Positions 23,544-54,880 of a stretch of 64,000 bases of DNA are shown one piece after another; positions within the stretch are counted from its first letter, which is position 1, and each line of letters starts with the position of its first letter. The notes below the pieces were generated by a model. That model searched no databases, was not told where the DNA came from, and saw only the letters and a program-made list of their open reading frames with translations. Source of the DNA: Candidatus Iainarchaeum sp. (GTDB lineage Archaea; Iainarchaeota; Iainarchaeia; Iainarchaeales; GCA-2688035). The stretch covers positions 16,137 through 80,136 of the forward strand of contig JAFCCO010000003.1 of NCBI GenBank assembly GCA_017610175.1. Direction: 5' to 3'. The position numbers and the translations under genes were made by a program.

Positions 23544-25283
23544 ATGAAAAAAATTGACTGGAGCAATGAAGAGGAAAGACACAGGTTCTGGCACAGCAGC
23601 AGCCACGTGCTTGCGGCAGCGGTGAAAAAACTTTATCCCGGCGTTAAGTTTGCAATCGGCCCCCCGATTGAAAACGGATTCTACTACGACTTTGATGTTG
23701 AAAAGCCATTCACTCCGCAAGACCTTAAGAAAATCCAGAAACAGGCAAAGAAGTTTGCAGGCGGAAGCCACAAATTCGAGCACAAGGAAATTGGATTTGC
23801 AGAAGCCGAAAAAATGTTTAAAGACCAGCCATACAAGCTTGAGTTGATTAATGATTTGAAAAATGCAGGCGAGAAAAAATTAAGCATTTATACAAGCGGC
23901 GATTTTGTTGACTTATGCAAGGGACCGCACCTTAAAGGAACCGAAGAAATTAAGGCAATAAAATTGCTGAAGGTTGCAGGCGCATACTGGAAAGGCAGCG
24001 AGAAAAACAAGATGCTGCAGAGAATTTATGGAATTGCATTCCCTGAAAAAGAAATGCTTGAGGTTTGGGTGAAGCAAAGGGAAGAAGCGGCAAAAAGAAA
24101 CCACCTCAAAATAGGAAAAGAACTTGACCTGTTCAGCATGCATGAGGAAAGCCCGGGAATTCCTTTCTTCCACGGCAAAGGAATGGTTGTGTGGAACGAA
24201 CTTGCAAAGCTGTGGAGAGAAGAGCACGCAAAGCGCGGTTATGAGGAATTGAACACCCCAATAATTCTGAAAAAAATCCTGTGGGAACAAAGCGGACACT
24301 GGGACCACTACAAGGAAAACATGTATTTTACAAAAGTAGATGACGAGGATTACGCAATAAAGCCAATGAACTGCCCGGGTGGAATACTGATATTCAAAAC
24401 AGCCAGGCACAGCTACAAGGACTTGCCGATTAGGGCAGGGGAAATGGGAGTGGTTCACAGGCATGAGCTCAGCGGAGTGCTGAACGGGCTGTTTAGGGTT
24501 AGAAAATTCACGCAGGACGACGCACACATATTCTGCACAGAGGAGCAGATTGCACAAGAAATTGTGGGTGTAATAGACCTTGTTGATTTCTTCTACACAA
24601 AAATATTTGGATTCGAATACCACGTTGAACTAAGCACCATGCCTGAAAATGCACTTGGAAGCAAGGAAACATGGGACACTGCAGAGAACGCATTAAAGAA
24701 AGCCATGACCTCGAAGAAAATGAATTTTAAAGTGAACGAGGGAGATGGAGCATTCTACGGGCCAAAAATTGACTTCCACATAAAGGATTCGATGGGAAGG
24801 ACCTGGCAGTGCGCAACAATCCAGCTGGACTTTGCAATGCCTGAAAAGTTCTCGCTTGAATACATTGGGAAGGATGACAAGCCGCACAGGCCAGTAATGA
24901 TTCACAGAGTAGTATATGGAAGCATGGAACGCTTTATGGGAATCCTAATAGAGCACTATGCGGGCGCGTTCCCGCTCTGGCTAAACCCTGTTCAGGTTGC
25001 GATTGTTCCAATTGCCGACAGGCACGCGGATTACGCGGAAAAAGTTGGGGCAGAAATGCTGGACAAGGGAATAAGGGTTGAAGTCGATTCAAGAGGGGAA
25101 AGTGTCGCATACAAAATAAGGCACTGGCAGAAGCTTAAAGCCAACTACATCTTAGTCATTGGAGACAACGAAAAGAAGAACAAGACGGTGAATGTAAGGA
25201 CACGCGATGGAAAAGTCCTTGGCGAAAAGAATGTAAAGGAATTTATTGAAGAAACCATGGAAAAAACCTGCAAAAGGGAATAA
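23544..25283 (+). CDS. thrS: Threonyl-tRNA synthetase (bacterial-type N2 editing, catalytic and anticodon-binding domains; no TGS/N1 domain)
   Basis: 'HSSSHVLAAAV' matches the editing-site HxxxH, class II motifs such as 'FRVRKFTQDDAHIF' are present, and there is a C-terminal anticodon-binding domain. The protein is 579 aa. Confidence 0.9.
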   Translation: MKKIDWSNEEERHRFWHSSSHVLAAAVKKLYPGVKFAIGPPIENGFYYDFDVEKPFTPQDLKKIQKQAKKFAGGSHKFEHKEIGFAEAEKMFKDQPYKLELINDLKNAGEKKLSIYTSGDFVDLCKGPHLKGTEEIKAIKLLKVAGAYWKGSEKNKMLQRIYGIAFPEKEMLEVWVKQREEAAKRNHLKIGKELDLFSMHEESPGIPFFHGKGMVVWNELAKLWREEHAKRGYEELNTPIILKKILWEQSGHWDHYKENMYFTKVDDEDYAIKPMNCPGGILIFKTARHSYKDLPIRAGEMGVVHRHELSGVLNGLFRVRKFTQDDAHIFCTEEQIAQEIVGVIDLVDFFYTKIFGFEYHVELSTMPENALGSKETWDTAENALKKAMTSKKMNFKVNEGDGAFYGPKIDFHIKDSMGRTWQCATIQLDFAMPEKFSLEYIGKDDKPHRPVMIHRVVYGSMERFMGILIEHYAGAFPLWLNPVQVAIVPIADRHADYAEKVGAEMLDKGIRVEVDSRGESVAYKIRHWQKLKANYILVIGDNEKKNKTVNVRTRDGKVLGEKNVKEFIEETMEKTCKRE

Positions 25284-25318
25284 GGCAAAACCCCCTCGGA
25301 AAGGTTTAAATAAAACAA

Positions 25319-27232
25319 TTGCCTTCTTTATCTGATTTTTCTATGCCTAAAACGGATTACTTAAAGGAACTTATGGAGAAAGTGAAGGCGGCTAAAAAAA
25401 AGCAGCCAGTGGAAGCTCCTGAAAAAGAAGAAGAAGCACCAGTAGAGGAATTTGAATCCCCTAAAGACGTACCCGCCCCAATCCAACAAATCGAAAGTAT
25501 TCCAACAGTTTCTGAAAAAGACAAGATTTCACAGGAAATGGAGGATTTGCTTAAGCAGCCCACCCCCCAACCAAAAGCTGTTGCAGAACCGATTCCAGAA
25601 CCTGCGAAAACAGTCCCTGTGGCAGTACCCGAACCAACCCCTGCAACAGCTCCAATTGAAGAGCCTGTTGTCGCAACAAGGGATGAAGTTCAGGCAAAGG
25701 AAAGTGTGGCTGAAGGGGTTGCGGAGATTCCAAAAGAAGAGCCTGTTGAGAAAAAAAGCGAAGCAGAAAAAGACATAGAAAAGGCTGGGAAAAAAATTGA
25801 GGTTGCAAGCTACGGCGATGTAAAAATTTACAAGATTCCCGGAAAGCCACTTCTTTACTACTTTATTCCAGTCCCGCGATCCACTGGGGCGGAAAAAACA
25901 ATAATCAACACAATAAAAGAAGCCGCAACAAGGCTAATCACAATCTCACCCTACAAAATAAGGGAACCAGAGCAAAGAAGGGCGGTTTACAAGCAAAAGA
26001 TTATGGAAATTCTCAGGGGAAGCCCGGAACTGCGGATTCCTGAAAGAAGATTTGAATTTTACACAGATGCTGTTGTAAGGGAAATGGTCGGCTATGGCAT
26101 AATAGACCCGCTTGTAAGGGACGATAAGCTTGAGGAAATTATGGTCATAGGCCCAAAGAAGCCTGTTTACCTATTCCACAGGGATTATGAAATGATGACC
26201 TCAAACATTGAGTTTTACAACGATCAGGAAATTATTGATTTGATAAACAGAATTGCAAGGGAAATAGGTAGAAGGGTTGACATAAGCTCGCCGCTGCTGG
26301 ATGCACGCCTGCCTGACGGCAGCAGGGTCAACGCCACAATCCCCCCGGCTTCCGTCGCAGGTTCAACAATTACAATCAGAAAATTCAGAAAACAGCCATA
26401 CAGCGTAATTGACCTTATTAATATGAACACGCTTTCAGCGGAATGCGCTGCCTTCCTCTGGCTTGCGGTTGAAGGGCTTGGAGTGAAACCGGCAAACGTG
26501 CTGATTGCAGGGGGGACCGGTTCAGGAAAAACCACCCTGCTCAACGTCCTTGCATCATTTGTTCCGGAAAATGAAAGAATTGTCACAATTGAAGACACCG
26601 CCGAATTGAATTTGCCGCTCAAGCACCTAATCCGCATGGAAGCAAGACCGCCTGGGCTTGAGGGAAAGGGTGAACTGACACTGGACATTCTGACAAAAAA
26701 CAGCCTCAGGATGAGACCCGACAGGATATTGGTTGGGGAAATAAGGCACGACGAAGCATTCAGCCTGTTCACCGCAATGAACACAGGCCACGCAGGAAGC
26801 ATGGGAACGGTGCACGCAAACAGCGCGCAGGAAACACTTATCAGAATAAAAAGCCCCCCAATGTCCGTTCCGGAAGTAATGCTCAGCGGACTGGATCTTA
26901 TCCTAATAGAGCACAGAATCCACGACAAGAAAAAGGGAACAATAAGAAGGCTTACTGAAATTGCAGAAGTGACAGGCGTGCTTGTGGGAAAGGCACAAAC
27001 GCAAACAATTTTCGAACGCGACCCTGTGGAAGACTCAATAATCAAAACAAACGTTCCAATAAGCTATCTCAAAGAACTGCAGGACTTTTCCGGATTCAGC
27101 AGAAAGCAAATTGACGCAGAACTCAATGACAGAGCAGCACTGCTAAATACCCTGGTTAAAAAAAATATACACTTAATGGAAGACGTGCACAAAGAAATGC
27201 AAAACTATTTGTTGAAAAAGAAGGAAGCTTAA
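25319..27232 (+). CDS. Type IV pilus/archaellum assembly ATPase (TadA/FlaI/GspE family) with a long disordered N-terminal extension
   Basis: Walker A 'IAGGTGSGKTTLLNVL', 'LIRMEARPPG', Walker B 'RILVGEIR' and His box 'MNTGHAGSMGTVHANS'. The first roughly 160 aa are Pro/Ala/Glu/Val-rich and low complexity. Confidence 0.85.
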   Translation: MPSLSDFSMPKTDYLKELMEKVKAAKKKQPVEAPEKEEEAPVEEFESPKDVPAPIQQIESIPTVSEKDKISQEMEDLLKQPTPQPKAVAEPIPEPAKTVPVAVPEPTPATAPIEEPVVATRDEVQAKESVAEGVAEIPKEEPVEKKSEAEKDIEKAGKKIEVASYGDVKIYKIPGKPLLYYFIPVPRSTGAEKTIINTIKEAATRLITISPYKIREPEQRRAVYKQKIMEILRGSPELRIPERRFEFYTDAVVREMVGYGIIDPLVRDDKLEEIMVIGPKKPVYLFHRDYEMMTSNIEFYNDQEIIDLINRIAREIGRRVDISSPLLDARLPDGSRVNATIPPASVAGSTITIRKFRKQPYSVIDLINMNTLSAECAAFLWLAVEGLGVKPANVLIAGGTGSGKTTLLNVLASFVPENERIVTIEDTAELNLPLKHLIRMEARPPGLEGKGELTLDILTKNSLRMRPDRILVGEIRHDEAFSLFTAMNTGHAGSMGTVHANSAQETLIRIKSPPMSVPEVMLSGLDLILIEHRIHDKKKGTIRRLTEIAEVTGVLVGKAQTQTIFERDPVEDSIIKTNVPISYLKELQDFSGFSRKQIDAELNDRAALLNTLVKKNIHLMEDVHKEMQNYLLKKKEA

Positions 27233-28414
27233 ATGGCAAACCTCAATTTTCTGAAGAAAAAGATTTCCGAAAAAAACAAGCAAAAGAAACAGAACTTAGG
27301 CGAGCCCAAAGACGCAAAAGAAGAAGCCGTGGACATGGACCGCGTTGAACAAATTGTAAAGACAATGAAGAAAAAGTACAAGGAACAGGGAATCGAATTT
27401 GAAGAAGTCGGCGGGAGATTAAGGGAACTGCGCGGAATAATAGCAGAGGGACGCACGGGGGAAATTGAAATACAAAAAGTTGAAGCCCTTCCCGACATGA
27501 AAAATCCAATTGTCAAAACGGTCGGCAATGTTTACATCAAAATGAGAAAAATTTTCGAGCCCATCACAAAGCTCGCAATCAGGCTTCCACAATTTGATAT
27601 GCTTGCATTCTACCTTTATTCCGCAAACATGAGATATTCCGCAAGGCAATATCTTGCATTATCGGTTACAGGCGCGGGAATAATTCTTGCATTTGCATTT
27701 TTTATAATAAGCATTATCATTGCATTGCTTGACATCCCACTAATCACAAAGGTTCTGCTAATTCCGCTTGTGTCAGTGTTTGTATTCTTCTTTTCACTCA
27801 TAGTACTGCTGCTTATTCCAAGCCAAAAGGCAAAAGAAAGGGGCGCTGCAATAAGCATAGAACTTCCGTTTGCACTGCGGCACATGGCAACAGAACTTAG
27901 GGCGGGAATAGGTCTGTACAGGACAATTCAAGCTATTGCCACCGCAGGCTATGGTGCGCTAAGTGAAGAGTTTGCACGCACAATAAACGAAATTGAAGAG
28001 GGGACAGACACAAAAGATGCACTAAGGCACCTTGCACTAAGAACACAAAGCCAGGCACTAAGAAACGCACTCATGCACATAATCAGGGCACTTAAAACAG
28101 GCGGAAACCTAAGCGAAATAATGAACGATATCGCAGAGGATGTTGCATTTGAGCTAAGAATGAGCACAAGGGATTTTGCCGCCAAAATGAACTTTTTTGG
28201 GGTAATATTCATTTTTGCAGCCATAGTAATGCCAGTTATAATTGCCATACTTGGCGGAATAAGAAACAGCCCGATCGGGGAATCAGGGGGAGTAAGCTTT
28301 AAGGACATGCTTCCGCTTGGGCCTGAAGTAATTGCGGGAATATACCTAATACTAATGCCCCTTATGCTGCTCATGTTTATACTGTACATAAAAGCTTCTC
28401 AACCAAAGGTGTAA
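27233..28414 (+). CDS. TadB/TadC (FlaJ)-like polytopic pilus platform protein
   Basis: Cytoplasmic N-domain, then T2SSF-like segments 'LPFALRHMATELRAGIGLYRTIQAIA' and 'ALRHLALRTQSQALRNALMHIIRALKTGGNL', with flanking TM helices. Confidence 0.7.
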   Translation: MANLNFLKKKISEKNKQKKQNLGEPKDAKEEAVDMDRVEQIVKTMKKKYKEQGIEFEEVGGRLRELRGIIAEGRTGEIEIQKVEALPDMKNPIVKTVGNVYIKMRKIFEPITKLAIRLPQFDMLAFYLYSANMRYSARQYLALSVTGAGIILAFAFFIISIIIALLDIPLITKVLLIPLVSVFVFFFSLIVLLLIPSQKAKERGAAISIELPFALRHMATELRAGIGLYRTIQAIATAGYGALSEEFARTINEIEEGTDTKDALRHLALRTQSQALRNALMHIIRALKTGGNLSEIMNDIAEDVAFELRMSTRDFAAKMNFFGVIFIFAAIVMPVIIAILGGIRNSPIGESGGVSFKDMLPLGPEVIAGIYLILMPLMLLMFILYIKASQPKV

Positions 28415-28418
28415 CAAG

Positions 28419-29351
28419 ATGGCTAGACAAAATTTGATTAAAAAACTGCTGGAAAAATACAAGTGGTATTTGAAAAGGGCAGACTTCAATATCCCTGTAG
28501 AAGTCTGGGTGCCGGTTTCGTTCGGCCTGGCAATAGCCTCCGCCGTAATCCTGTTCCTGTTTATTGCCCTGTTAAATTTGCCTGTAAGCCCACTAATGTC
28601 GCTTATAATTTTCCTGGTTGTAGTTGACTTAATGCTTGGATACCCCTACATAAAGGCAACTTCAAGAATTGATGCAATGGAAGCCGCCTTGCCGGATGCA
28701 CTAAAGCAAATGGCGGACACACTCAAAGCAGGCGGAACATACGAATACGCACTGCGTGAAATTGCAACATCACAATACGGGCCGCTTACAAAGGAAATGG
28801 GCCTTGCATTGAGAAAACTAGAGGAGGGTGAAACCCTTGAAAACAGCCTCAAAACTTTTGCAGACAACATAGGGTCAAGGCTAATAAGCAGAAGTGTTGC
28901 GGTAATAATTGACAGCATAAAGGCAGGAGCCGGGCTTGCAACAGTCCTTGATGAAATTGCAGAAGACATAAGGGCAATGCACAGAATAGGGCGTGAAAGA
29001 AGAAGCGGAACCGCCCTCCAAGTAATGTTTATGGTTGCGGCAGGAAGCCTTGTTGCCCCAATAATTCTCGGACTAGTTTCAAGCATAATTGGGCTCTTTA
29101 TTCAGGCTTCAGCAGCACTTGACATAACCGCCGCGCAAAAAGCCCAAGCACTGAGCGTAAAAGACATGATTGTGTTTCTGATGCAATCATACATCCTAGT
29201 TGAGGTAACTGCCTCAGGAGTTATGGTATCTTTAATGCGAAACGGAAACATAAGCAAAAGTATTATATACATCCCTATCCTCTTACTAGTAGCGTATATT
29301 ACATACTATACCTCGTCATTTGTATCAATGATAGCAATTGGAGGAGTTTAA
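28419..29351 (+). CDS. TadB/TadC (FlaJ)-like platform protein, second paralog
   Basis: T2SSF-like repeats 'ALPDALKQMADTLKAGGTYEYALREIA' and 'ATVLDEIAEDIRAMHRIGRERRS', plus TM helices. Confidence 0.7.
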   Translation: MARQNLIKKLLEKYKWYLKRADFNIPVEVWVPVSFGLAIASAVILFLFIALLNLPVSPLMSLIIFLVVVDLMLGYPYIKATSRIDAMEAALPDALKQMADTLKAGGTYEYALREIATSQYGPLTKEMGLALRKLEEGETLENSLKTFADNIGSRLISRSVAVIIDSIKAGAGLATVLDEIAEDIRAMHRIGRERRSGTALQVMFMVAAGSLVAPIILGLVSSIIGLFIQASAALDITAAQKAQALSVKDMIVFLMQSYILVEVTASGVMVSLMRNGNISKSIIYIPILLLVAYITYYTSSFVSMIAIGGV

Positions 29352-29537: not shown

Positions 29538-29714
29538 ATGGATGAAAAAGCACAAGGAGCACTAGAATACCTACTCCTAATAGGAGGCGCAGTACTAGTA
29601 GCAGCAATCGTCCTCACACTCGTCACAGGACTTGCCACAACAGGACAACACACAACACATGTAGGTGGCACAAAGGTCAGTGGCCAGCTAAACGCGCTTA
29701 ATGCACTGTCATAA
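29538..29714 (+). CDS. Short Flp-like archaeal pilin
   Basis: 'MDEKAQGALEYLLLIGGAVLVAAIVLTLV' with SD 'GGAGG'. The first 74 nt are identical to 29746..29819. Confidence 0.6.
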   Translation: MDEKAQGALEYLLLIGGAVLVAAIVLTLVTGLATTGQHTTHVGGTKVSGQLNALNALS

Positions 29715-29745
29715 ATATTATATTAATACGCGGAGGTGCAAAAAA

Positions 29746-29925
29746 ATGGATGAAAAAGCACAAGGAGCACTAGAATACCTACTCCTAATAGGAGGCGCAG
29801 TACTAGTAGCAGCAATCGTAATTGTTCTGCTTTCAGGACTGACAGGTACACCGCTCCACGCAAGCGAACAAGCAAATGCAAAACTGAACATAGGGTACTC
29901 AAGCCTTAACGCCCAGGCAAAATAA
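29746..29925 (+). CDS. Short Flp-like archaeal pilin (tandem duplicate)
   Basis: 'MDEKAQGALEYLLLIGGAVLVAAIVIVLL'. The 5' 74 nt are identical to the upstream copy and the C-termini diverge. Confidence 0.6.
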   Translation: MDEKAQGALEYLLLIGGAVLVAAIVIVLLSGLTGTPLHASEQANAKLNIGYSSLNAQAK

Positions 29926-29951
29926 TTGCCTGGCAAAAAGAGGATCTAAAC

Positions 29952-30107
29952 ATGGACGAAAAGGCTCAGGGGGCAATAGAATACTTGCTTTTGATAGCGG
30001 GAGCAGTGCTAGTAGCAGCAGCAGTTCTTGCATTTATGACATTTATAGTGCCGCAAACAAAGAATACCGCTAATACAAAACTGGTAAATTTCCTCCACGC
30101 CATCTGA
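29952..30107 (+). CDS. Short Flp-like archaeal pilin
   Basis: 'MDEKAQGAIEYLLLIAGAVLVAAAVLAF', 51 aa. It is below the length cut-off of the ORF track. Confidence 0.55.
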   Translation: MDEKAQGAIEYLLLIAGAVLVAAAVLAFMTFIVPQTKNTANTKLVNFLHAI

Positions 30108-30143
30108 GCCAAATTATTTTTACTTAAAAACAAAGGTTTTTGC

Positions 30144-30317
30144 ATGGAAGAAAAAGCACAGGTTGCATTTGAATATCTCTTAACCGCCCTTTTTGGAATA
30201 GTGCTTGCAATATCCGCAGCAATACTGGTTGACACCATAAGGGGAATCTCACTGGTAGCGCAAGGTGAAATACTTGAGTACAGGGATGACACAATTTCTG
30301 CATTGATGCAGGGCTGA
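30144..30317 (+). CDS. Short Flp-like archaeal pilin
   Basis: 'MEEKAQVAFEYLLTALFGIVLAISAAILV', 57 aa. It is not in the ORF track. Confidence 0.5.
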   Translation: MEEKAQVAFEYLLTALFGIVLAISAAILVDTIRGISLVAQGEILEYRDDTISALMQG

Positions 30318-30326
30318 GGTGTTCCA

Positions 30327-31412
30327 ATGCCCTGGAATCAAATTCTCGTTCTCATTTCCATAGCAGGATTAGGGATTGCAACATACACTGATTTAAAGCA
30401 AAGAATGGTTAGGAACTGGCTCACCTATTCCCTTATTGCAGGGGGGCTTGCAGGAAACCTTGTTCTTGCAATAATCGAATCACGCCCCGAAATATTCATA
30501 CTGTCCGCAATAGCAACAGTGTTCGGATTTGGCTTTGCATACCTACTGTGGAAAATGGGCGTGTGGGCCGGAGGAGATGTAAAGCTGTTTACCGGTTTGG
30601 CCGCACTTAACCCGGTTGCCCCGCTTGCATTTGGCTGGATCTCACTATTCCCAATTGCACTTTTTGTGTTCTCCATTTTCGCAGTACTCCCCTACGGAAT
30701 AATTATTGCACTGCACGGCCTGATGAAACGAAATGAAGAAAGGAAGAAAGTAATCAAAGACTCGGCAGTGAAAGTAAAGCAAACAATTCAAATCGGGCTT
30801 GCAATAGTGGGGCTTTCATGGATTCTGGGAATGTTCAACATACCCGCACTAGCCATAATCCCCATATTAATCGTGTTTGGAATGATAAAAAACGCAAAAG
30901 CAATGTGGGCAATTGCCACATTGCTATTTGCGGCAAGTGCATTTAATGCCCCGATTGCAAGCATTACAAATTTCGTTGTAATCTTTGCCCTGTTCTTTGG
31001 ATTCTACCTATTCATAAAACTTTACACAGTATCCAAAATAATCCTGAGGGAAGAGAAAAAAATAAGTGAACTGGAAGAGGGGGACATTCCTGTTGAATCA
31101 ATAATTGAATTGGATGGAAACGTAAAAAGAGTAGCCCCCCTGGAAATAAAAACAATTATTAACTACCTCGCGAATAATAAAGTACAGGAACTGCTGCAAT
31201 TACTGCAGTCAAAAGGGAGGGTGATTGCAAACAACAAGAGAGCAAGAGGGCTTACGGACGAGGAAATAGAAGAGCTCAACGGGCTTGTTAAAAGCAAAAA
31301 GTTGAGCAATCTGCTTCAGGTGAAGCTTTCTGCACCGTTTGTTCCCGCATTGTTAATTGCATATATCACACTTTACTTGATTGGAGATTTTGTATGGGCT
31401 TTGGTCTTATGA
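30327..31412 (+). CDS. Prepilin/preflagellin peptidase (A24 family; PibD/FlaK/TadV-like) with C-terminal extension
   Basis: First catalytic Asp in TM1 ('IATYTDLKQRMVRN') and second Asp in 'WAGGDVKLF', in a polytopic membrane core. A roughly 110-aa charged, coiled-coil-like region and a final TM helix follow the core. Confidence 0.7.
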   Translation: MPWNQILVLISIAGLGIATYTDLKQRMVRNWLTYSLIAGGLAGNLVLAIIESRPEIFILSAIATVFGFGFAYLLWKMGVWAGGDVKLFTGLAALNPVAPLAFGWISLFPIALFVFSIFAVLPYGIIIALHGLMKRNEERKKVIKDSAVKVKQTIQIGLAIVGLSWILGMFNIPALAIIPILIVFGMIKNAKAMWAIATLLFAASAFNAPIASITNFVVIFALFFGFYLFIKLYTVSKIILREEKKISELEEGDIPVESIIELDGNVKRVAPLEIKTIINYLANNKVQELLQLLQSKGRVIANNKRARGLTDEEIEELNGLVKSKKLSNLLQVKLSAPFVPALLIAYITLYLIGDFVWALVL

Positions 31413-31888
31413 AAAACAGGAAAGGACAAATATCTATTGAGTTTATACTCATAATACTCATCGTTCTTGTATACATAACTTCCGTTATTCAGCCAACGGT
31501 AAAAATAGCCACCGAAACAACCTGGGACATTACAAGGCTTTCTGAGACAAAATTTGCAGCACAAAAACTTGCAGCCGCAATAAACCAGCTTGAAGCAAGC
31601 GGCGGAGACGGGAAAAAAACAATAAGCCTGTTTGTCCCAAAAGGCGCGGTGGTTGAATGCACCGGCATAGCATCAATAGACTTCACAGCGTCACTGGGCA
31701 GCTTGTCAGTTCCCCCTGTGTGCGATCCTATTGGAAGGGAATGCGCCGGATCAATTGAACTCGTTTCAGGAATAAGCGGCCTTAACTGTTTTGGAGGAAG
31801 CCCAATTGATGCAAGTGCAAGCAACATCTTTAGAAAAGTTGAAGTTATAAAGGACATAACCGGAATTAGGGTTGCTTATGCCTCTTAA
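31409..31888 (+). CDS. Pilin-like protein with class III signal peptide and a globular C-terminal domain
   Basis: 'MKNRKGQISIEFILIILIVLVYI'. The start overlaps the peptidase stop, and the Cys-containing C-terminal domain is about 130 aa. Confidence 0.5.
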   Translation: MKNRKGQISIEFILIILIVLVYITSVIQPTVKIATETTWDITRLSETKFAAQKLAAAINQLEASGGDGKKTISLFVPKGAVVECTGIASIDFTASLGSLSVPPVCDPIGRECAGSIELVSGISGLNCFGGSPIDASASNIFRKVEVIKDITGIRVAYAS

Positions 31889-32225
31889 CAAAAAAGGGCA
31901 GGTGAGCTTTGAACTGTTAATGCTGACAGCCATCATTTTTGTAACCGCCATCTGGACAAGCGGATACTACCTAGATATAAAGGATTCAACACTGGCAATA
32001 CAATTATCAAAAGCCCAGTCAATTCTGGAAATTGAGGAAGAAGACGACCTCTACACAATTGAAAAAATAGAATTTGTGGAAGTAACGAACGAACAAATAG
32101 ATATTACAGTAAGATTCTGCCCGGACTCAACAATTGATTTTGATGAAGGGGCGCTTGCAACGAAGATAACACAAAACACAAAGTACACCACCGCAAACAT
32201 TGGAGTGGTGGACGGCTCCTGCTAA
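31872..32225 (+). CDS. Pilin-like protein (class III signal peptide)
   Basis: 'MLMPLNKKGQVSFELLMLTAIIFVTAIW'. The gene overlaps its upstream neighbour. Confidence 0.45.
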   Translation: MLMPLNKKGQVSFELLMLTAIIFVTAIWTSGYYLDIKDSTLAIQLSKAQSILEIEEEDDLYTIEKIEFVEVTNEQIDITVRFCPDSTIDFDEGALATKITQNTKYTTANIGVVDGSC

Positions 32226-48403: not shown

Positions 48404-48945
48404 ACAAGCAGAAAAGACTATTTTTTGCCGTTAACCTGCCTGACAAAGTGAAAGAAGAAATTTCAAAAACAATTCTTCCAAAAATTCCGAAAGAAAAGTG
48501 GAGAACTGTCAAGAAAGAAAATCTCCACATAACAATGCGGTTTCTTGGGCATCTCCCTGAACAAGCAATTGGGGAATTGCAGGAAAAAACAAACGTTGTT
48601 GGGAACAGTGAAGAGTTTTATGCAGAACTAAAGGGTGTTGGGCATTTCAAAAACCGCATTCTGTGGATTGGAACAGGGGAAGGGACAAATGAATTCAACC
48701 TGCTTAGCAAAAAACTGTGTGAAGCGCTTGGGGTTTTGGACAAAAGGTTCCACGCACATATAACAATTGCAAGAAACAGGGGATCAAAACCAAAAGAAAC
48801 GGACGAATTAATCGAGGGGCTTCGCAAACAGAAGTTTGAAAGGAGAATAACCGTAAGATCGGTTGACTTAATGGAATCAATTCTTCACAAAGCTGGCCCG
48901 GAATACAAAAAGGTTTTTTTAACAGAACTTAAATCTCGCCTGTAA
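48400..48945 (+). CDS. 2H phosphoesterase (LigT/ThpR 2'-5' RNA ligase / 2',3'-cyclic phosphodiesterase)
   Basis: Two H-x-T-x motifs ('HITMRFLG' and 'HAHITIAR') and the start 'RLFFAVNLP'. Confidence 0.7.
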   Translation: MNKQKRLFFAVNLPDKVKEEISKTILPKIPKEKWRTVKKENLHITMRFLGHLPEQAIGELQEKTNVVGNSEEFYAELKGVGHFKNRILWIGTGEGTNEFNLLSKKLCEALGVLDKRFHAHITIARNRGSKPKETDELIEGLRKQKFERRITVRSVDLMESILHKAGPEYKKVFLTELKSRL

Positions 48946-50464
48946 GTTTTTCCAAAAGCTCCTGCGGCCTTGCATAATATTCAAGAATAATTTTCTCAAC
49001 ATCATCCCTGTCCTTGACTCCGTTCTCAAGCATCCACTCAAGTATGCGCTGCCTTACAAGCATCTCGCCCTTAAGCTGATTTTTGGTCAAGCCAACCCGT
49101 TCAGAGAGGCTCTCCAAAACCCCGCTTGGAACCGTTGTTTTCTCCACAAGCCCCTTCTTTGTATTAAGTTCAAAAATATTGCTTAGCAGAACCGTGTCCT
49201 CCATGCGGCCAACCTCTGCAACCTGCTTCACCCTTCTTATCATCCCGCTTTCCTTGCGGTAACTGCGCTGCATGACAACAATGAGATCAAGAAGCGGCAG
49301 CATTGATTCGGGAACGTCCATTGGACTGCTTTTGAAACGCAGCAGCATTTCACGGGCTGAATTGCTATGCACGGTCCCAAGTATGCCCCTGTGCCCTGTG
49401 TCCATCGCAACGAACATTGTTTGGGCTTCGCTTCCGCGAACTTCCCCAACCAACAACCTGTCAGGGCGCATTCTCAAAGAGTTCTTAAGCAAGTCATCCA
49501 TTTTAACTTCGGACAAGTCCTTCATCTTGGGCTTGCTCTCCATCTGGATCCAATTATCGCGCTCGCCCAAATCAAGCTCAAGCGTGTCCTCAATGCTTAT
49601 AATGCGGTGGCTAAATGGAATAAACGAAGCAAGAATGTTGAGCAAAGTTGTTTTTCCACTGCCGGCACCGCCCGTGACAATTATGTTCATTGGATCGACA
49701 TTAAGGCCCTCCACCATTAACCACAGGAAGGCAGCAAGTTCCACACTAAGGGTATTGTTCTCAACCAAATGAACTATGGAAAGGGGCATCTTGGAAAATT
49801 TTCTTATTGTAAGTGAATGCCCAAAGGGGGTAACATAGGAAAAAGTGGCGTTTGCCCTGCTGCCGTCAGGCAAGCGCGCATCAAGCAGGGGGTGGGCGTC
49901 ACTGAATTGCTTACTGACGGTGTTTGCAATCCTCATTATAAGCTCTACAACAAAACCCCTTTCCTTTGCCACAACATTTGTTTTGCACATTCCATGTTTT
50001 TTGTGGAAGACAAATACATTTCTATCAAAGCCGTTAATCATAATTTCCTCAAGATTCTCGTCCGACATCATTTCCGCAATCTGCCTGAAACCAATTGACT
50101 TATCAAGCACATATTTTGCAAACTTTGTGGGTGAGGCAACGCCCATGCTTCTGGCAATTGCAGCAAGCGCAAGGCTTACTCCCGCAAAGTCTGCCGGCAG
50201 GGGAAGCTTTTGAATCATTCCAATTGAATCAATCGGCTGTATTACGGTTTCGCGAAAGGCAGTGGCGAGTTTTGCGGTTGGCAAAATTCTCTGCAACTCT
50301 GCAACCGAACCCTGGCGCATTATAATCCTAATAAAGCTTTGGGCAAGCGCATCCTCTTTGGGGGGCAAAGTTGGCTTTGAGACCTCGTATATGTTGTGTG
50401 GAAAGCCCTCAAATATGGAAACCCGGCCATAGGAATCAAGTTTCTTTCCCTTAAATTCTTTCAT
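48929..50464 (-). CDS. Second FlaI/TadA/GspE-family secretion ATPase (orphan paralog)
   Basis: 'HPLLDARLPDGSRANATF', Walker A 'VTGGAGSGKTTLLNILASF', 'RDNWIQMESKP', 'RLLVGEVRG' and 'MDTGHRGILGTVHSNS', closely paralleling the 25319..27232 ATPase. No adjacent platform gene. The ORF extends to 50572. Confidence 0.8.
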   Translation of the reverse strand: MKEFKGKKLDSYGRVSIFEGFPHNIYEVSKPTLPPKEDALAQSFIRIIMRQGSVAELQRILPTAKLATAFRETVIQPIDSIGMIQKLPLPADFAGVSLALAAIARSMGVASPTKFAKYVLDKSIGFRQIAEMMSDENLEEIMINGFDRNVFVFHKKHGMCKTNVVAKERGFVVELIMRIANTVSKQFSDAHPLLDARLPDGSRANATFSYVTPFGHSLTIRKFSKMPLSIVHLVENNTLSVELAAFLWLMVEGLNVDPMNIIVTGGAGSGKTTLLNILASFIPFSHRIISIEDTLELDLGERDNWIQMESKPKMKDLSEVKMDDLLKNSLRMRPDRLLVGEVRGSEAQTMFVAMDTGHRGILGTVHSNSAREMLLRFKSSPMDVPESMLPLLDLIVVMQRSYRKESGMIRRVKQVAEVGRMEDTVLLSNIFELNTKKGLVEKTTVPSGVLESLSERVGLTKNQLKGEMLVRQRILEWMLENGVKDRDDVEKIILEYYARPQELLEKLTGEI

Positions 50465-50538
50465 AGGCATCTGGAAATCACAACCAGTATTATAAACACC
50501 ATTTACATATATAAATAAGTTTTGATAGAGTTGATTGC

Positions 50539-52816: not shown

Positions 52817-54880
52817 TTGATTAAAACAATTGAGCTGCAGAACTGGAAAACCCACCTGAACAGCAGGTTTGAATTTTCAAACGGAACCAATTTGCTTGTT
52901 GGGGCAATGGGCTCCGGAAAAACAAGCGTAATGGACGCCATCTGCTTTGCACTATTTGGAACTTTCCCAAGCCTGCAACAGAGAAAGCTGAGCCAGCAGG
53001 AAATAATAATGGCAAAGCCGAACAAAATGGACTTTGCAAGGGTAAAGCTTGAGTTTGACTACAATGGGCAAGAGTACGCTGTTGAGCGCGTGATAAAGGA
53101 GAAGGGCGGAACAGAAGCAAAGTTTTACATTTCCAAAAAGTTTACAGCAGGGCCAAAACCAAACGATGTAAACAAGGCGATTGAGAACGCGATTGAAATA
53201 AACTACAACCTATTTAGCCGTGCGGTATATTCCGAACAAAACCAGATCGACCACTTCCTAAGGCTTTCCCCCGGACAGCGCAAGGAAAAGTTTGATGAAC
53301 TGCTTGAACTTGACAGGTATGAAAAAGTGAGAAGCAGTGCTGTTAGCACACAAAACAGGCTGAACGGAATTATGACGGACAAAAGCGCATGGCTTGGAGA
53401 ACTTAAAAAAGAATTTAAGGGAAGCGACGCAAAAGAGCTTGAGAAAAAAAAGGAAGAGAAAGAAAAGCTGCTCAAGGAACTTAATGAAAAGGAAAAATCG
53501 CTCGCAAAGGAAACCGAGAGCCTTAAGAAAGAGGTAAGCGAGCTTGAGCAAAAAGAAAAGGAATTTAGGGAGCTTAGTGAAAGTGTTTCAAAGAAGTCCT
53601 ATCTGGCAGAGCAACTTGCAAAAGAAGTGGGGAACACAGGAAAAGAGCTTAAGGGTCTGGATGCCGAAGTGATTGAGAAAAGCATTGAGGGAAGGAATGA
53701 GGAACTGAAAAAGAAACGCAGTGAAATCGACGGGCTTGAGAAAAAAGAAAAGGAAATTATTGAAAAAGCCAGTGCGGCAAAGCAAGAAATTAAGGGGAAT
53801 GAACTCAAGGTTAAGGAGCTAAAGGAACAAACCGCCGGAGTAAAGGGAGTTGAAGGAAACTGCCCGGTCTGCAAAACACTGCTTGACAAAGGTAAAAAAG
53901 AGCACATTGAAAAAGAAAACAGGGAACTTGAGGAAAAATTAGGGGAAAAAAACAAAAAGATAAGCGAAGAAATTGAAAAATTTGAGAAAGAGCAGGAAAA
54001 GCTTGGAAAGGAAAGGGGCGCCGCGGAAAAAGAGGAAAGCGCAGTTGAGGAAAAGGTCGTGGAATTAAAGAGGCTTTTGGAGCTTGCAAAAAAGCTTGGT
54101 GAAAAGAAAGTGCAGGCGGAAAAGCTTGGAAAGGAAGCAAAAGACACAAGGGCAAGAATCGAAAAGCTTGGGTTTGACGAGGCAAAAGCAAAGAAAGCAA
54201 AGGATGACGCAATTCGCACAGAATCCGCGGTTGGGTCCTGCAAAAAAGAACAAGCAAGCGTGAAAGAGATTCTTGCATTTGTCGAAAACGAAATTGAAAA
54301 GTCAAAGAAAAACGAGGAACAAATCAAAGAACTTGAAGCAAGCGTGAAAGCAATTGAAAAAAGTTTGGAAAAGCTGAATTTGTTTGTGAATTCTTTAAGG
54401 GAAACGCAGGCTCAGCTAAGGGAGAGCCTGATTGAAACAATCAACGAAGCAATGGACCAAATATGGCAGGACATTTACCCATACAAGGACTACTCTTCCG
54501 CAATGATGGCGGTTGAAGACGGAAACTATGAACTTGTTGTTAAAAACAGGGAAGGGAATTGGGAGCGGGTTGAAGGAATTTTAAGCGGAGGGGAAAGGTC
54601 ATCCGCAGCAATCTGCATCAGAATAGCGTTCTCGCTTGTTCTGACAAGAAACCTTTCGTGGATGATTCTGGACGAGCCAACACACAACCTTGACACAACC
54701 GCAGTAAGCTGTTTGAGCAAAATGATGCGTGAATCCCTCCCTAAAATAATCGAGCAGGTTTTTGTGATAACACACGATAAAGAAATGGAGAAAGCCGCAT
54801 CCGGCACGCTCTATGTGCTAAACAGAAATAAAAGTGTGGACGGGCCAACAAAAGCGGAATCAATTGCTTTAGAAAGTTAG
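52817..54880 (+). CDS. rad50: Rad50 DSB repair ATPase (SMC-like, zinc hook)
   Basis: Walker A 'LLVGAMGSGKTSVMDAI', a long coiled coil with the central hook 'CPVCKT', signature 'LSGGERS' and D-loop 'MILDEPT'. A TTG start is called. Confidence 0.85.
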   Translation: MIKTIELQNWKTHLNSRFEFSNGTNLLVGAMGSGKTSVMDAICFALFGTFPSLQQRKLSQQEIIMAKPNKMDFARVKLEFDYNGQEYAVERVIKEKGGTEAKFYISKKFTAGPKPNDVNKAIENAIEINYNLFSRAVYSEQNQIDHFLRLSPGQRKEKFDELLELDRYEKVRSSAVSTQNRLNGIMTDKSAWLGELKKEFKGSDAKELEKKKEEKEKLLKELNEKEKSLAKETESLKKEVSELEQKEKEFRELSESVSKKSYLAEQLAKEVGNTGKELKGLDAEVIEKSIEGRNEELKKKRSEIDGLEKKEKEIIEKASAAKQEIKGNELKVKELKEQTAGVKGVEGNCPVCKTLLDKGKKEHIEKENRELEEKLGEKNKKISEEIEKFEKEQEKLGKERGAAEKEESAVEEKVVELKRLLELAKKLGEKKVQAEKLGKEAKDTRARIEKLGFDEAKAKKAKDDAIRTESAVGSCKKEQASVKEILAFVENEIEKSKKNEEQIKELEASVKAIEKSLEKLNLFVNSLRETQAQLRESLIETINEAMDQIWQDIYPYKDYSSAMMAVEDGNYELVVKNREGNWERVEGILSGGERSSAAICIRIAFSLVLTRNLSWMILDEPTHNLDTTAVSCLSKMMRESLPKIIEQVFVITHDKEMEKAASGTLYVLNRNKSVDGPTKAESIALES

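Follow-up and report, generated by a model that had tools for sequence, protein, structure and literature searches.

The type IV pilus (Tad/Epd-like) assembly ATPase encoded in this 64,000-nucleotide stretch of Candidatus Iainarchaeum DNA (hereafter the window) carries an N-terminal extension of 156 amino acids (25343-25810) that consists of three parts: a tip helix (aa 1-19), a disordered linker (aa 20-136) and a pre-core helix (aa 137-156). The same three-part layout is present in all 77 close homologues, which come from Iainarchaeota/Diapherotrites MAGs. We hold this anatomy of the N-terminal module and its family-wide occurrence to be nearly certain, and the long disordered tail is an old feature of the family. 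A preliminary description of the sequence had considered a recent insertion, which does not agree with a module found in 77/77 close homologues and, in a short form, in Micrarchaeota. It had also reported a low-complexity extension of about 160 aa; the extension is real, at 156 aa, but its low complexity is confined to aa 20-136.

Results

To define the protein we examined the open reading frame at 25319..27232 (+, 637 aa), which encodes a T2SSE-family ATPase with a long N-terminal region upstream of the conserved 'YGDVKIYKIPGKP'. Pfam PF00437 matches aa 259-527 with an E-value of 6e-48 and 163.7 bits against a curated cut-off of 24.9. All of the catalytic motifs (Walker A P-loop, Walker B, Asp box and His box) are present, and the sequences GTGSGKTT, RPDRILVGEIR and NTGHxGxxGTVHA in the translation are invariant across the homologue alignment. 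By profile and catalytic motifs, the protein is a PilT/VirB11-like secretion ATPase. Its best sequence matches in the PDB are to CpaF (8RKD and 9E24, E 3e-76 to 7e-76), with further matches to Archaeoglobus fulgidus GspE (4e-67), FlaI (2e-59) and T2SS GspE (~1e-5 to 1e-6), and its database relatives carry the name 'CpaF family protein'.

The preliminary description had the extension begin at 25319, which is a TTG. Sequence comparison instead assigns the true start to ATG 25343, giving a coding sequence of 629 aa plus stop (25343..27232, +; Pfam T2SSE, PDB and Foldseek matches), because an identical protein in the public database (P0001) is 629 aa long, because homologues begin with M-x(1-4)-DYL, and because of the placement of a TATA-like box. 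This pattern is the N-terminal beginning of all the ATPase homologues, with an uninterrupted reading frame to the core in 77/77 of the close ones. The box, TTTAAATA (25305..25312, +), was read from the sequence and lies 38 nt 5' of ATG 25343, whereas TTG 25319 is only 7 nt 3' of it; in this window and about 11 homologous loci such a box is found 28-42 nt 5' of the conserved ATG. Its interpretation as a promoter element follows from general knowledge of archaeal promoters, and its position implies a leaderless or very short-leader mRNA. A start further downstream, for example at a Met near residue 190, had also been envisaged. No usable one exists, since the protein has no Met from aa 66 to aa 221, a position that three conserved residues (S139, K151 and Y157) precede. 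Codon usage scores 0.377 bits/codon in the ATPase frame versus ≤0.077 in the five other frames, and translation of the N-terminal tail is well supported by these sequence features. About 20 further loci, beyond the 77 homologues, carry the tip motif.

The linker (25400..25750, +; aa 20-136, 117 aa) is rich in Pro, Glu, Val, Ala and Lys (18%, 20.5%, 12%, 11% and 8.5%, respectively) and has a net charge per residue of -0.15. It contains the most disorder-prone 100-aa segment among 12,449 such segments from the 64 putative genes of the window, with a TOP-IDP score of 0.381 vs 0.081 +/- 0.071 for the window genes and a Pro fraction of 0.19 vs a mean of 0.041. We obtained AlphaFold2 models of the window ATPase and of one short-linker homologue, both as monomers. 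In the former, pLDDT falls below 50 at aa 20-59, 78-81, 86-92 and 94-134, with most of the linker at 35-46; the quality of the models is limited, because a conserved catalytic stretch also scores low pLDDT in both. The preliminary description was thus right about a long tail, in that the peptides it quoted are present and the segment is translated and disordered, and both the pLDDT profile and the TOP-IDP ranking bear out the disorder. Its statement that the segment has no secondary structure holds for most of the linker but not throughout the extension, where three short helices are predicted (aa 6-19, 59-69 and 140-147).

The second of these helices, DKISQEMEDLL (25517..25549, +; aa 59-69), has a pLDDT of about 64 and lies within the linker. 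Its alignment occupancy is ~90% with 20-50% identity, and an amphipathic mid-linker pattern occurs in 17 of 77 linkers against 8.9 expected from shuffled linkers. We considered it as a second conserved motif and rejected it, given an enrichment of only about twofold over shuffled linkers; its conservation appears weak and is uncertain. At the nucleotide level, Tandem Repeats Finder reported no tandem repeat at 25200-26000, and so the tail is not a repeat expansion. The in-frame repeat structure raised in the preliminary description is limited to one imperfect in-frame direct repeat, PIEEPVV/PKEEPVE (25651-25688 and 25729-25766, +, spacing 78 nt), with 74% identity over 38 nt and a 13-nt exact core. 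On its sequence, this pair may be a trace of linker growth via duplication.

The tip helix, MPKTDYLKELMEKVKAAKK (25343..25399, +; aa 1-19), is amphipathic and basic, with a hydrophobic moment of 0.48, and is predicted by AlphaFold2 as a helix at aa 6-19 (pLDDT 59-69). The family pattern is MxxxDYLKDLIKKVKxAKK; among 65 sequences K15 is invariant and M1, Y6, L7 and L10 are each at least 90% conserved. The motif occurs once in the 64-kb window, and Micrarchaeota relatives keep it as M-x-Y-L-x-x-L-x-x-K-A-K. As judged from this conservation, the tip helix is under selection. Homologues might have begun at the same Met with a structured domain; what they have is a short helix followed by disorder. 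In the model of the homologue with a 29-aa linker, the tip helix reaches a pLDDT of 61-75 vs 84-93 for the domain, suggesting that it is not confidently docked in cis even on a short linker; monomer models would not reveal docking in trans on a neighbouring subunit or at the nucleotide pocket. When the tip-motif profile was searched against the PDB, neither FlaI nor CpaF was matched, and only chance matches (E 0.18-9) to coiled-coil or helical peptides were returned (ATF4 zipper, viral phosphoprotein, designed helix). The conserved N-terminal cap motif, the informative part of the extension, was absent from the preliminary description.

The extension ends in a conserved pre-core helix, KKSEAEKDIEKAGKKIEVAS (25751..25810, +; aa 137-156), with the consensus KSxxEKELEKAxKKxEIxS, at least 90% conservation of S139 and K151, and an AlphaFold2 helix at aa 140-147 (pLDDT 60-84). 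The folded core comprises a FlaI/GspE-type N-terminal domain (25796..26380, +; aa 152-346; pLDDT 83-93), in which the model shows a small beta sheet followed by a bundle of three helices and an N2 subdomain, and a C-terminal ATPase domain (26405..27229, +; aa 355-629; Pfam T2SSE) with the Walker A sequence GTGSGKTT. The top Foldseek matches are FlaI 4II7 (E 1.4e-30) and 4IHQ, with 475-496 aligned columns; for FlaI and A. fulgidus GspE together the range is 470-496. By this structural comparison, the modelled N-terminal domain has a FlaI-type fold.

Comparison of the 77 homologues revealed that the linker varies from 26 to 146 aa (median 77) and is not alignable. Its composition follows lineage, being K/E-rich, S/P-rich, N/Q-rich or P/A/E/V-rich, and a spacer-like make-up (high charge or high Pro, few hydrophobics) is kept throughout, with a charged-residue fraction of 0.41 and 10% Pro. 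Selection on the linker thus appears to act on its role as a spacer, not on its sequence. In the sister lineage Micrarchaeota the helix is kept and the spacer is only ~15-30 aa, and in both the Micrarchaeota proteins and FlaI the tip motif lies ~35-41 residues from the first beta strands. Because Micrarchaeota keep the helix with a short spacer, the linker is an expansion specific to this lineage, placed between the N-terminal domain and a tip element that is older. A literature search found no earlier description of such a tail for pilus ATPases of archaea or of DPANN; the N-terminal domains mentioned by Makarova et al. 2016 are Cys-rich ones only and belong to other clades.

Its gene content identifies the locus as a complete type IV pilus operon of the Tad/Epd-like kind: it encodes two platform proteins of one domain each, small Flp-like pilins, an A24 prepilin peptidase and one ATPase only. 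The TadB-like platform protein (27233..28414, +) has one T2SSF domain (Pfam 5e-20) and a cytoplasmic N-terminal extension of ~110 aa; related loci share its N-terminal block VEKIVxxMKKKYxxEGxEFEEVxGxLxELRGII, and the protein is a candidate docking partner. The TadC-like platform protein (28419..29351, +) also has one T2SSF domain (Pfam 7e-16). Four tandem genes for small Flp-like pilins (29538-29714, 29746-29925, 29952-30107 and 30144-30317, +) encode proteins of 50-60 aa, each beginning M(D/E)EKAQ(G/V)A(L/I/F)EYLL; pilins 1 and 2 were identified with Pfam Class_IIIsignal, and pilins 3 and 4 by visual inspection of the N-termini in the translated ORFs. The prepilin peptidase (30327..31412, +; Peptidase_A24 1e-12) has an archaeal C-terminal domain (Arc_PepC 6e-13). 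Two more pilin-like genes with class III signal peptides are found at 31394-31888 (+; Class_IIIsignal 8e-7, 29.2 bits) and 31872-32225 (+), the latter a weak match (1e-3, 19.4 bits, with the curated cut-off at 23.7 bits). Inspection of 22-37 kb showed no FlaH/KaiC-like gene. The ATPase was not filed as FlaI, because it is flanked by a platform split over two T2SSF proteins and by Flp-like pilins of 50-60 aa, where a FlaI gene would be associated with FlaH, a single two-domain FlaJ and archaellins.

The TadB- and TadC-like proteins carry basic N-terminal helices of their own (MANLNFLKKKISEKNKQKK and MARQNLIKKLLEKYK), which we weighed as the partner or as a shared motif. The TadB-like helix looks similar to the ATPase motif and recurs in some loci; it is not an obligate partner, because it is absent in loci L002-L004 and L006, which retain the ATPase motif.

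A paralogous T2SSE ATPase (48929..50470, −; ~513 aa; tblastn E 8e-101, ORF translation) begins MPMKEFKGKKLDSYGRVSIF and is 44% identical in the core. It lacks both the N-terminal helix and the linker and so serves as an internal control. Within the window, the N-terminal module is thus specific, on sequence evidence, to the motor of the pilus operon.

Discussion

The preliminary description held that cytoplasmic secretion ATPases normally lack such tails, which was overstated. A disordered region of 79 aa is present at the N-terminus of class II CpaF, and in class III CpaF an FHA domain is fused to the disordered region (PMC12019362; PMC11300603). The class II region is the closest precedent. 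The class II CpaF of Caulobacter crescentus and the ATPase described here are members of one ATPase family (CpaF is the best PDB sequence match, 3e-76). Both work with a two-protein platform, small Flp-like pilins and an A24 peptidase, and both have an N-terminal tail (in CpaF NTD0/IDR, aa 1-79) that is predicted to be disordered and holds a short helix. The class II arrangement of a disordered region ahead of a helical bundle is shared as architecture only, since the search detected no similarity in sequence between the two tails. With 136 aa ahead of the pre-core helix, the tail here has about twice the length of that in CpaF and is capped by a conserved tip motif for which the profile search found no CpaF counterpart. 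In addition, the folded part is a FlaI-type N-domain with a beta sheet instead of a three-helix bundle alone, and the host, being an archaeon, lacks an outer membrane, a secretin and CpaE/TadZ.

For the folded part, the best structural match is FlaI (ArlI) of Sulfolobus acidocaldarius (4IHQ/4II7). The N-terminus of FlaI, MSFVEDYLTKLQERP, shares the D-Y-L-x-x-L pattern, its Tyr is invariant in 8 FlaI-like sequences, and the spacing from motif to first strands matches that of the Micrarchaeota pilus ATPases. FlaI, unlike this ATPase, has no disordered linker, and its gene accompanies those of FlaH, FlaJ and FlaX in an archaellum operon, whereas the ATPase here is in a pilus operon. Alignment of the tip motif with a single FlaI sequence using hhalign was not significant (E 0.12-0.35). 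When Micrarchaeota N-termini were compared with FlaI 1-76, FlaI 1-225 and a FlaI-like alignment, the profile-profile comparison with the last of these aligned only the beta/PxP region (E 0.011). A database search with FlaI 1-76 gave no matches, and one with FlaI 1-225 returned 37 proteins only, mostly fragmentary. At the sequence level the tip motif and the FlaI N-terminus therefore show a resemblance only, with homology statistically unsupported.

In GspE/EpsE of the bacterial T2SS, a long flexible linker connects the motor with the N1E domain, the part that docks on the cytoplasmic domain of GspL, and the GspE-GspL complex (PDB 4PHT) was among our structural matches. The design principle of docking element, flexible linker and motor (N1E, linker, N2E-CTE) is shared. 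Unlike the tip helix, N1E is a folded domain of ~80 aa and not a single helix; the linker of GspE is shorter and the sequence relation remote. The two-domain fold recurs in A. fulgidus GspE (2OAP), likewise a secretion ATPase from an archaeon (Foldseek E 2e-29). Its sequence match begins at query aa 184, and this 511-aa protein has ~58 residues ahead of the aligned region and lacks a long N-terminal tail.

These data allow us to propose a mechanism in which the tip helix docks to the platform or membrane and the linker is a flexible tether, a reading that rests on analogy and to which we give an even chance of being correct. The flexible tether or interaction arm suggested in the preliminary description is the best-fitting interpretation of a conserved tip helix on a linker that varies in length and sequence; strong conservation of the tip next to a freely drifting tether speaks for docking as its function. 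By analogy with FlaI, whose N-termini form the crown tips and are proposed to lock into loops of the platform FlaJ (PMC4307647), the tip helix would be an autonomous docking element facing the platform. As cited in PMC12019362, the first 29 residues of FlaI are required for motility and not for assembly. The tip helix may bind the TadB/TadC-like platform on its cytoplasmic side, or else the membrane, and the linker would provide a tether with a contour length of up to ~35 nm. With six tethers on each hexamer, the motor would stay at high local concentration near its platform during engagement, disengagement or reversal of the catalytic ring. Such a tether would parallel the disordered N-terminus of CpaF, a region that promotes extension and retraction and is dispensable for ATP hydrolysis: CpaF without this region shows lower frequencies of pilus extension and retraction, with ATPase activity unaffected (PMC12019362).

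A first alternative is that the expansion has no function of its own, with the tip helix packing on the N-terminal domain of its own or a neighbouring subunit in a FlaI-like crown, and the linker drifting as, at most, an entropic bristle. The ~35-41 residue spacing in Micrarchaeota and FlaI would fit such packing, and an unconstrained linker sequence that follows genome composition, with a trace of in-frame duplication, would fit drift. Pure drift, however, predicts losses, and none of the 77 Iainarchaeota-type homologues has lost the linker (minimum 26, median 77 aa); a spacer-like composition is maintained, and AlphaFold2 leaves the helix undocked even with a short linker. We consider this alternative doubtful.

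It is less probable still, and in our view unlikely, that the tail is an allosteric gate whose helices reach their own or a neighbouring nucleotide pocket and tune nucleotide access and direction of rotation. Such a gate or 'gear switch' was proposed by Hohl et al. for helix H0 within the disordered NTD0 of CpaF. The tail here likewise contains helices (aa 6-19 and 59-69), and a single ATPase in the operon makes a bifunctional motor plausible. A later study of CpaF found extension and retraction to be equally reduced and most CpaF orthologues to lack the disordered region, and its authors oppose a switch role (PMC12019362). Neither helix here is confidently placed by AlphaFold2, the mid-linker helix is poorly conserved, and a linker of 26-146 aa far exceeds the length needed to reach the pocket in cis.

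A role as a regulatory hub, with the disordered region serving as a substrate or scaffold for, e.g., phosphorylation read by FHA or vWA proteins, is very improbable: class III CpaF does combine an FHA domain with a disordered region (PMC12019362) and linkers are Ser/Thr/Pro-rich in some lineages (loci L008, L010 and L022), but the linker of the window ATPase has few Ser/Thr, none at a conserved position, and kinase, phosphatase and FHA genes were not seen in the operon. Finally, an annotation or assembly artefact, with a downstream start and the low-complexity stretch as untranslated leader or misassembly, is effectively refuted: although other frames are open in this low-complexity DNA (ORFs 25452-25778, +, and 25551-25850, −) and P0001 probably derives from the same assembly and is not independent evidence, the motif and open frame are kept in the 77 homologues from many independent assemblies and at the ~20 further loci, conserved residues lie ahead of the next Met (aa 221), and TATA box placement and codon usage favour the ATPase frame from ATG 25343.

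Returning to the docking mechanism, a broader and more tentative form of it, which we think would probably not hold, is that archaellum and pilus ATPases share the 'DYLxxL..K.K' helix as an ancient, autonomous module for docking to platform or membrane, and that in Iainarchaeota a disordered tether of tunable length uncoupled it from the motor. If true, a hexamer leashed to its platform during disengagement of the ring would let one motor switch between extension and retraction or serve several platforms, and the family would constitute a natural separation-of-function experiment on the N-termini of FlaI and CpaF.

The module is an elaboration of a known architecture and not a new kind of machine. 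The role of N-terminal tails in single-motor type IV filament ATPases is debated, and two recent papers disagree on the CpaF region; this DPANN family, in which tip element and motor can be cleanly told apart, offers peptides and length variants for testing that role. DPANN cells are tiny and mostly host-attached, and pili are thought to matter to them. If the way of anchoring the pilus motor at the membrane has changed in this lineage, the change may bear on the host-attached lifestyle of these archaea.

The pilus motor gene and its start

The PilT/VirB11-like secretion ATPase (ORF listed as 25319..27232, + strand; Pfam T2SSE at aa 259-527, E 6e-48) is encoded by the first gene of a complete archaeal type IV pilus operon. 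By sequence it matches CpaF best among PDB entries (3e-76), ahead of A. fulgidus GspE (4e-67) and FlaI (2e-59), and a Foldseek search with the folded part returned FlaI (4II7, E 1.4e-30) as the best hit, followed by A. fulgidus GspE and then CpaF. The operon continues on the + strand with two single-domain platform genes (Pfam T2SSF; 27233-28414 and 28419-29351), four tandem Flp-like mini-pilin genes (29538-30317; precursors of 51-59 aa) and an A24 prepilin peptidase with an archaeal C-terminal domain (30327-31412), after which come two further pilin-like genes assigned by Pfam, the second on a weak match. The near-identical mini-pilin leaders, M(D/E)EKAQ(G/V)A(L/I/F)EYLL, recall bacterial Flp prepilins with a G/xxxxEY site. 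ThrRS and an Nre-family gene lie upstream. Close relatives of the ATPase come from MAGs labelled Diapherotrites, Iainarchaeum, 'ainarchaeum' or Nanoarchaeota, which makes a DPANN archaeon of the Iainarchaeota type the most likely source of the window.

The ORF search listed TTG 25319 as the first possible start, and the preliminary description had counted the N-terminal extension from there. Three findings favour ATG 25343: the public protein of identical sequence has 629 aa, every close homologue has the N-terminus M-x(1-4)-DYL, and a TTTAAATA box lies 38 nt upstream of this ATG (25305-25312, +). In about 11 related loci the conserved ATG is likewise preceded, at a distance of 28-42 nt, by a similar box. 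Given general knowledge of archaeal promoters, the position of the box implies a leaderless or near-leaderless mRNA and places TTG 25319 upstream of the transcription start. A true start further downstream is not viable: after aa 66 the next Met is at aa 221, and S139, K151 and Y157, which are conserved, all precede it.

A three-part N-terminal module

Alignment of 77 close homologues (core identity 60-83%) resolved the extension into a tip helix, a linker and a pre-core helix. The tip (aa 1-19) follows the motif M-x-x-x-D-Y-L-K-D-L-I-K-K-V-K-x-A-K-K, in which K15 is invariant and M1, Y6, L7 and L10 are conserved in at least 90%. AlphaFold2 (AF2) models aa 6-19 as a helix, with a hydrophobic moment of 0.48 and a hydrophobic face of Y6/L7/L10/M11/V14. 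The pre-core helix (aa 137-156; KSxxEKELEKAxKK) is also conserved and leads into the folded domain. The linkers between them are unalignable and range from 26 to 146 aa (median 77). A fraction of about 0.41 of their residues is charged, yet net charge is near neutral; Pro makes up 10%, and hydrophobic residues are few. Their flavour varies by lineage (K/E-rich, S/P-rich or N/Q-rich, and P/A/E/V-rich in the window's ATPase), and a predicted mid-linker helix at aa 59-69 is weakly conserved; none of the 77 homologues has lost the linker.

The low-complexity region of the preliminary description is real, its best-defined part being aa 20-136 of 629 (25400-25750; Pro 18%, Glu 20.5%, Val 12%, Ala 11%, Lys 8.5%; net charge per residue -0.15). 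Among 12,449 sliding 100-aa windows across the 64 putative genes, the linker has the highest disorder-propensity score (0.381 vs 0.081 +/- 0.071) and the highest Pro content (0.19 vs 0.041). The runner-up for disorder propensity is in a Rad50/SMC-like ATPase (52907-54880, +; SMC_N, AAA_23, SbcC Walker B), which has a CPVC motif and a coiled coil rich in K and E. AF2, run with a 65-sequence alignment, gave pLDDT <50 at aa 20-59 and 94-134 vs 83-93 for the domain from aa 152 on. Very low values (26-46) also occur at aa 433-509 of this model and aa 343-420 of that of a homologue, P0056. This stretch is the highly conserved Walker B to His box of the ATPase domain, and a shallow, closely related alignment and a monomeric, nucleotide-free prediction are probably responsible. 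Inteins interrupt the catalytic domain of many close homologues (P0057, P0082, P0094, P0096, P0099, P0104, P0112, P0113, P0117, P0118, P0120), all with Intein_splicing, all except P0117 with a LAGLIDADG domain and some with HTH; the window's copy has none.

The linker region codes in the ATPase frame, where codon usage gives 0.377 bits/codon against at most 0.077 in the other five frames and 0.283 in the core. Of the rival readings, an annotation artefact is the only one effectively excluded. GC by codon position is 0.73/0.40/0.32 in the linker vs 0.52/0.37/0.49 in the remaining gene; third-position GC is clearly lower, and Glu, Pro, Ala and Lys have codons ending in A. No tandem repeat was found in the linker region, where the one repeat is an imperfect in-frame pair (25651-25688 and 25729-25766), which hints at growth through local duplication.

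Distribution and origin of the module

The window encodes a second T2SSE protein (48929-50470, - strand; core identity 44% to the pilus motor), which begins MPMKEFKGKKLDSYGRVSIF and has neither tip helix nor linker. No platform or pilin genes are adjacent; its neighbours presumably encode LigT-like and CCA-adding enzymes, as guessed from sequence. The module is specific to the operon-encoded pilus motor rather than general to the fold or to this genome's proteins. 'EIFEDYP'-type proteins akin to the paralogue occur in loci L078 and L080.

The suggestion of a recent insertion in this genome does not hold. Micrarchaeota ATPases begin M-[GSAT]-Y-[LF]-[DE]-x-L-x-x-K-A-K, with 'KVLIDSYGDVKIY' only about 15-30 residues beyond, and their motif Tyr lies about 41 residues from the 'VKIY' strand. 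In Iainarchaeota-type proteins the distance to the 'YG.VKIY' anchor, just before that strand, is 59-178 residues (median 110.5; 151 in the window's ATPase). Since Micrarchaeota keep the motif with short spacing, the tip helix is older, and the linker was expanded in the Iainarchaeota-type lineage.

Farther relatives also carry disordered N-terminal tails, with other short hydrophobic motifs: MKDKRKEILRDLLGEF plus an acidic tail in Methanobacteriales (L040-L069), SWIDEIL with repeated DILG/LLGEIL or (D/E)ILG in Thermococci (L027, L059, L074, L079) and MAYDFL...GGLLG in Hydrothermarchaeales. TadB-like neighbours in the Thermococci and Methanobacteriales loci begin with FLxRLGGKT or FFNKIGNLTV motifs, a hint that ATPase/TadB-like motif pairs may be lineage-specific. 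Hydrothermarchaeales and further archaea have relatives of ~1,050 aa (P0002-P0012 and similar; L030) that are tandem T2SSE fusions, two ATPase units joined via a PilB3_C domain (PF23989) behind the N-terminus MAYDFL...KKKKK...GGLLG.

Relation to FlaI and CpaF, and a possible function

The N-terminus of S. acidocaldarius FlaI reads MSFVEDYLTKLQERP. The motif Tyr is invariant in 8/8 FlaI-like sequences (e.g. KYVEEIEKKM, EYLESLE) and lies 35-39 residues ahead of the first conserved strands (n=8), a pattern and spacing matching those of Micrarchaeota pilus ATPases. Comparison by hhalign gave no significant match between tip motif and FlaI (E 0.12-0.35), and the profile-profile match to FlaI-like sequences covers the beta/PxP region only (E 0.011); the resemblance, not statistically demonstrable, serves as a lead. 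The crown tips of FlaI consist of its N-termini, for which locking into FlaJ cytoplasmic loops has been proposed (PMC4307647), and, as cited in PMC12019362, its first 29 residues are required for motility and not for assembly.

We infer that the tip helix would dock on the platform's cytoplasmic face or on the membrane, with the linker as a flexible tether; its 117 residues would give a contour length of up to about 35 nm, and a hexamer would carry six tethers. This tether-and-dock reading rests on selection for the helix and for the linker's spacer character rather than its sequence, on retention of the linker in all homologues, and on the orphan paralogue without the module. The TadB-like platform protein encoded next to the ATPase has its own cytoplasmic N-terminal extension of ~110 aa (27233-27600, +; TadB-like genes of L001-L024), with a conserved block, VEKIVxxMKKKYxxEGxEFEEVxGxLxELRGII, and in some loci a basic N-terminal helix, LxxLKKxIEEKxKKKK, resembling the ATPase tip motif.

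The module could alternatively be an allosteric gate. An earlier study of CpaF proposed a gear switch in which a helix of the disordered region gates the nucleotide pocket (PMC11300603); truncating that region reduced extension and retraction and left ATPase activity intact, and the authors speculate that it mediates protein-protein interactions (PMC12019362). A further rival is loop expansion without function, in which the helix would pack onto the crown. AF2 does not confidently dock the helix on the ATPase's own domain, not even where the linker of a homologue is as short as 29 aa (tip pLDDT 61-75), which also favours tether-and-dock. The module might also be a regulatory scaffold.

The premise that secretion ATPases normally lack such tails was overstated, because disordered N-terminal regions exist in CpaF of classes II and III. 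The C. crescentus protein, a 'class II' Tad motor, has such a region of 79 aa, which class I lacks and to which class III adds an FHA domain (PMC12019362). No description of the module was found in the archaeal pilus literature searched. Together, these data describe a translated, conserved, tripartite module with a disordered middle part, an elaboration of known designs: class II CpaF, the FlaI tip and the GspE N1E-linker architecture.
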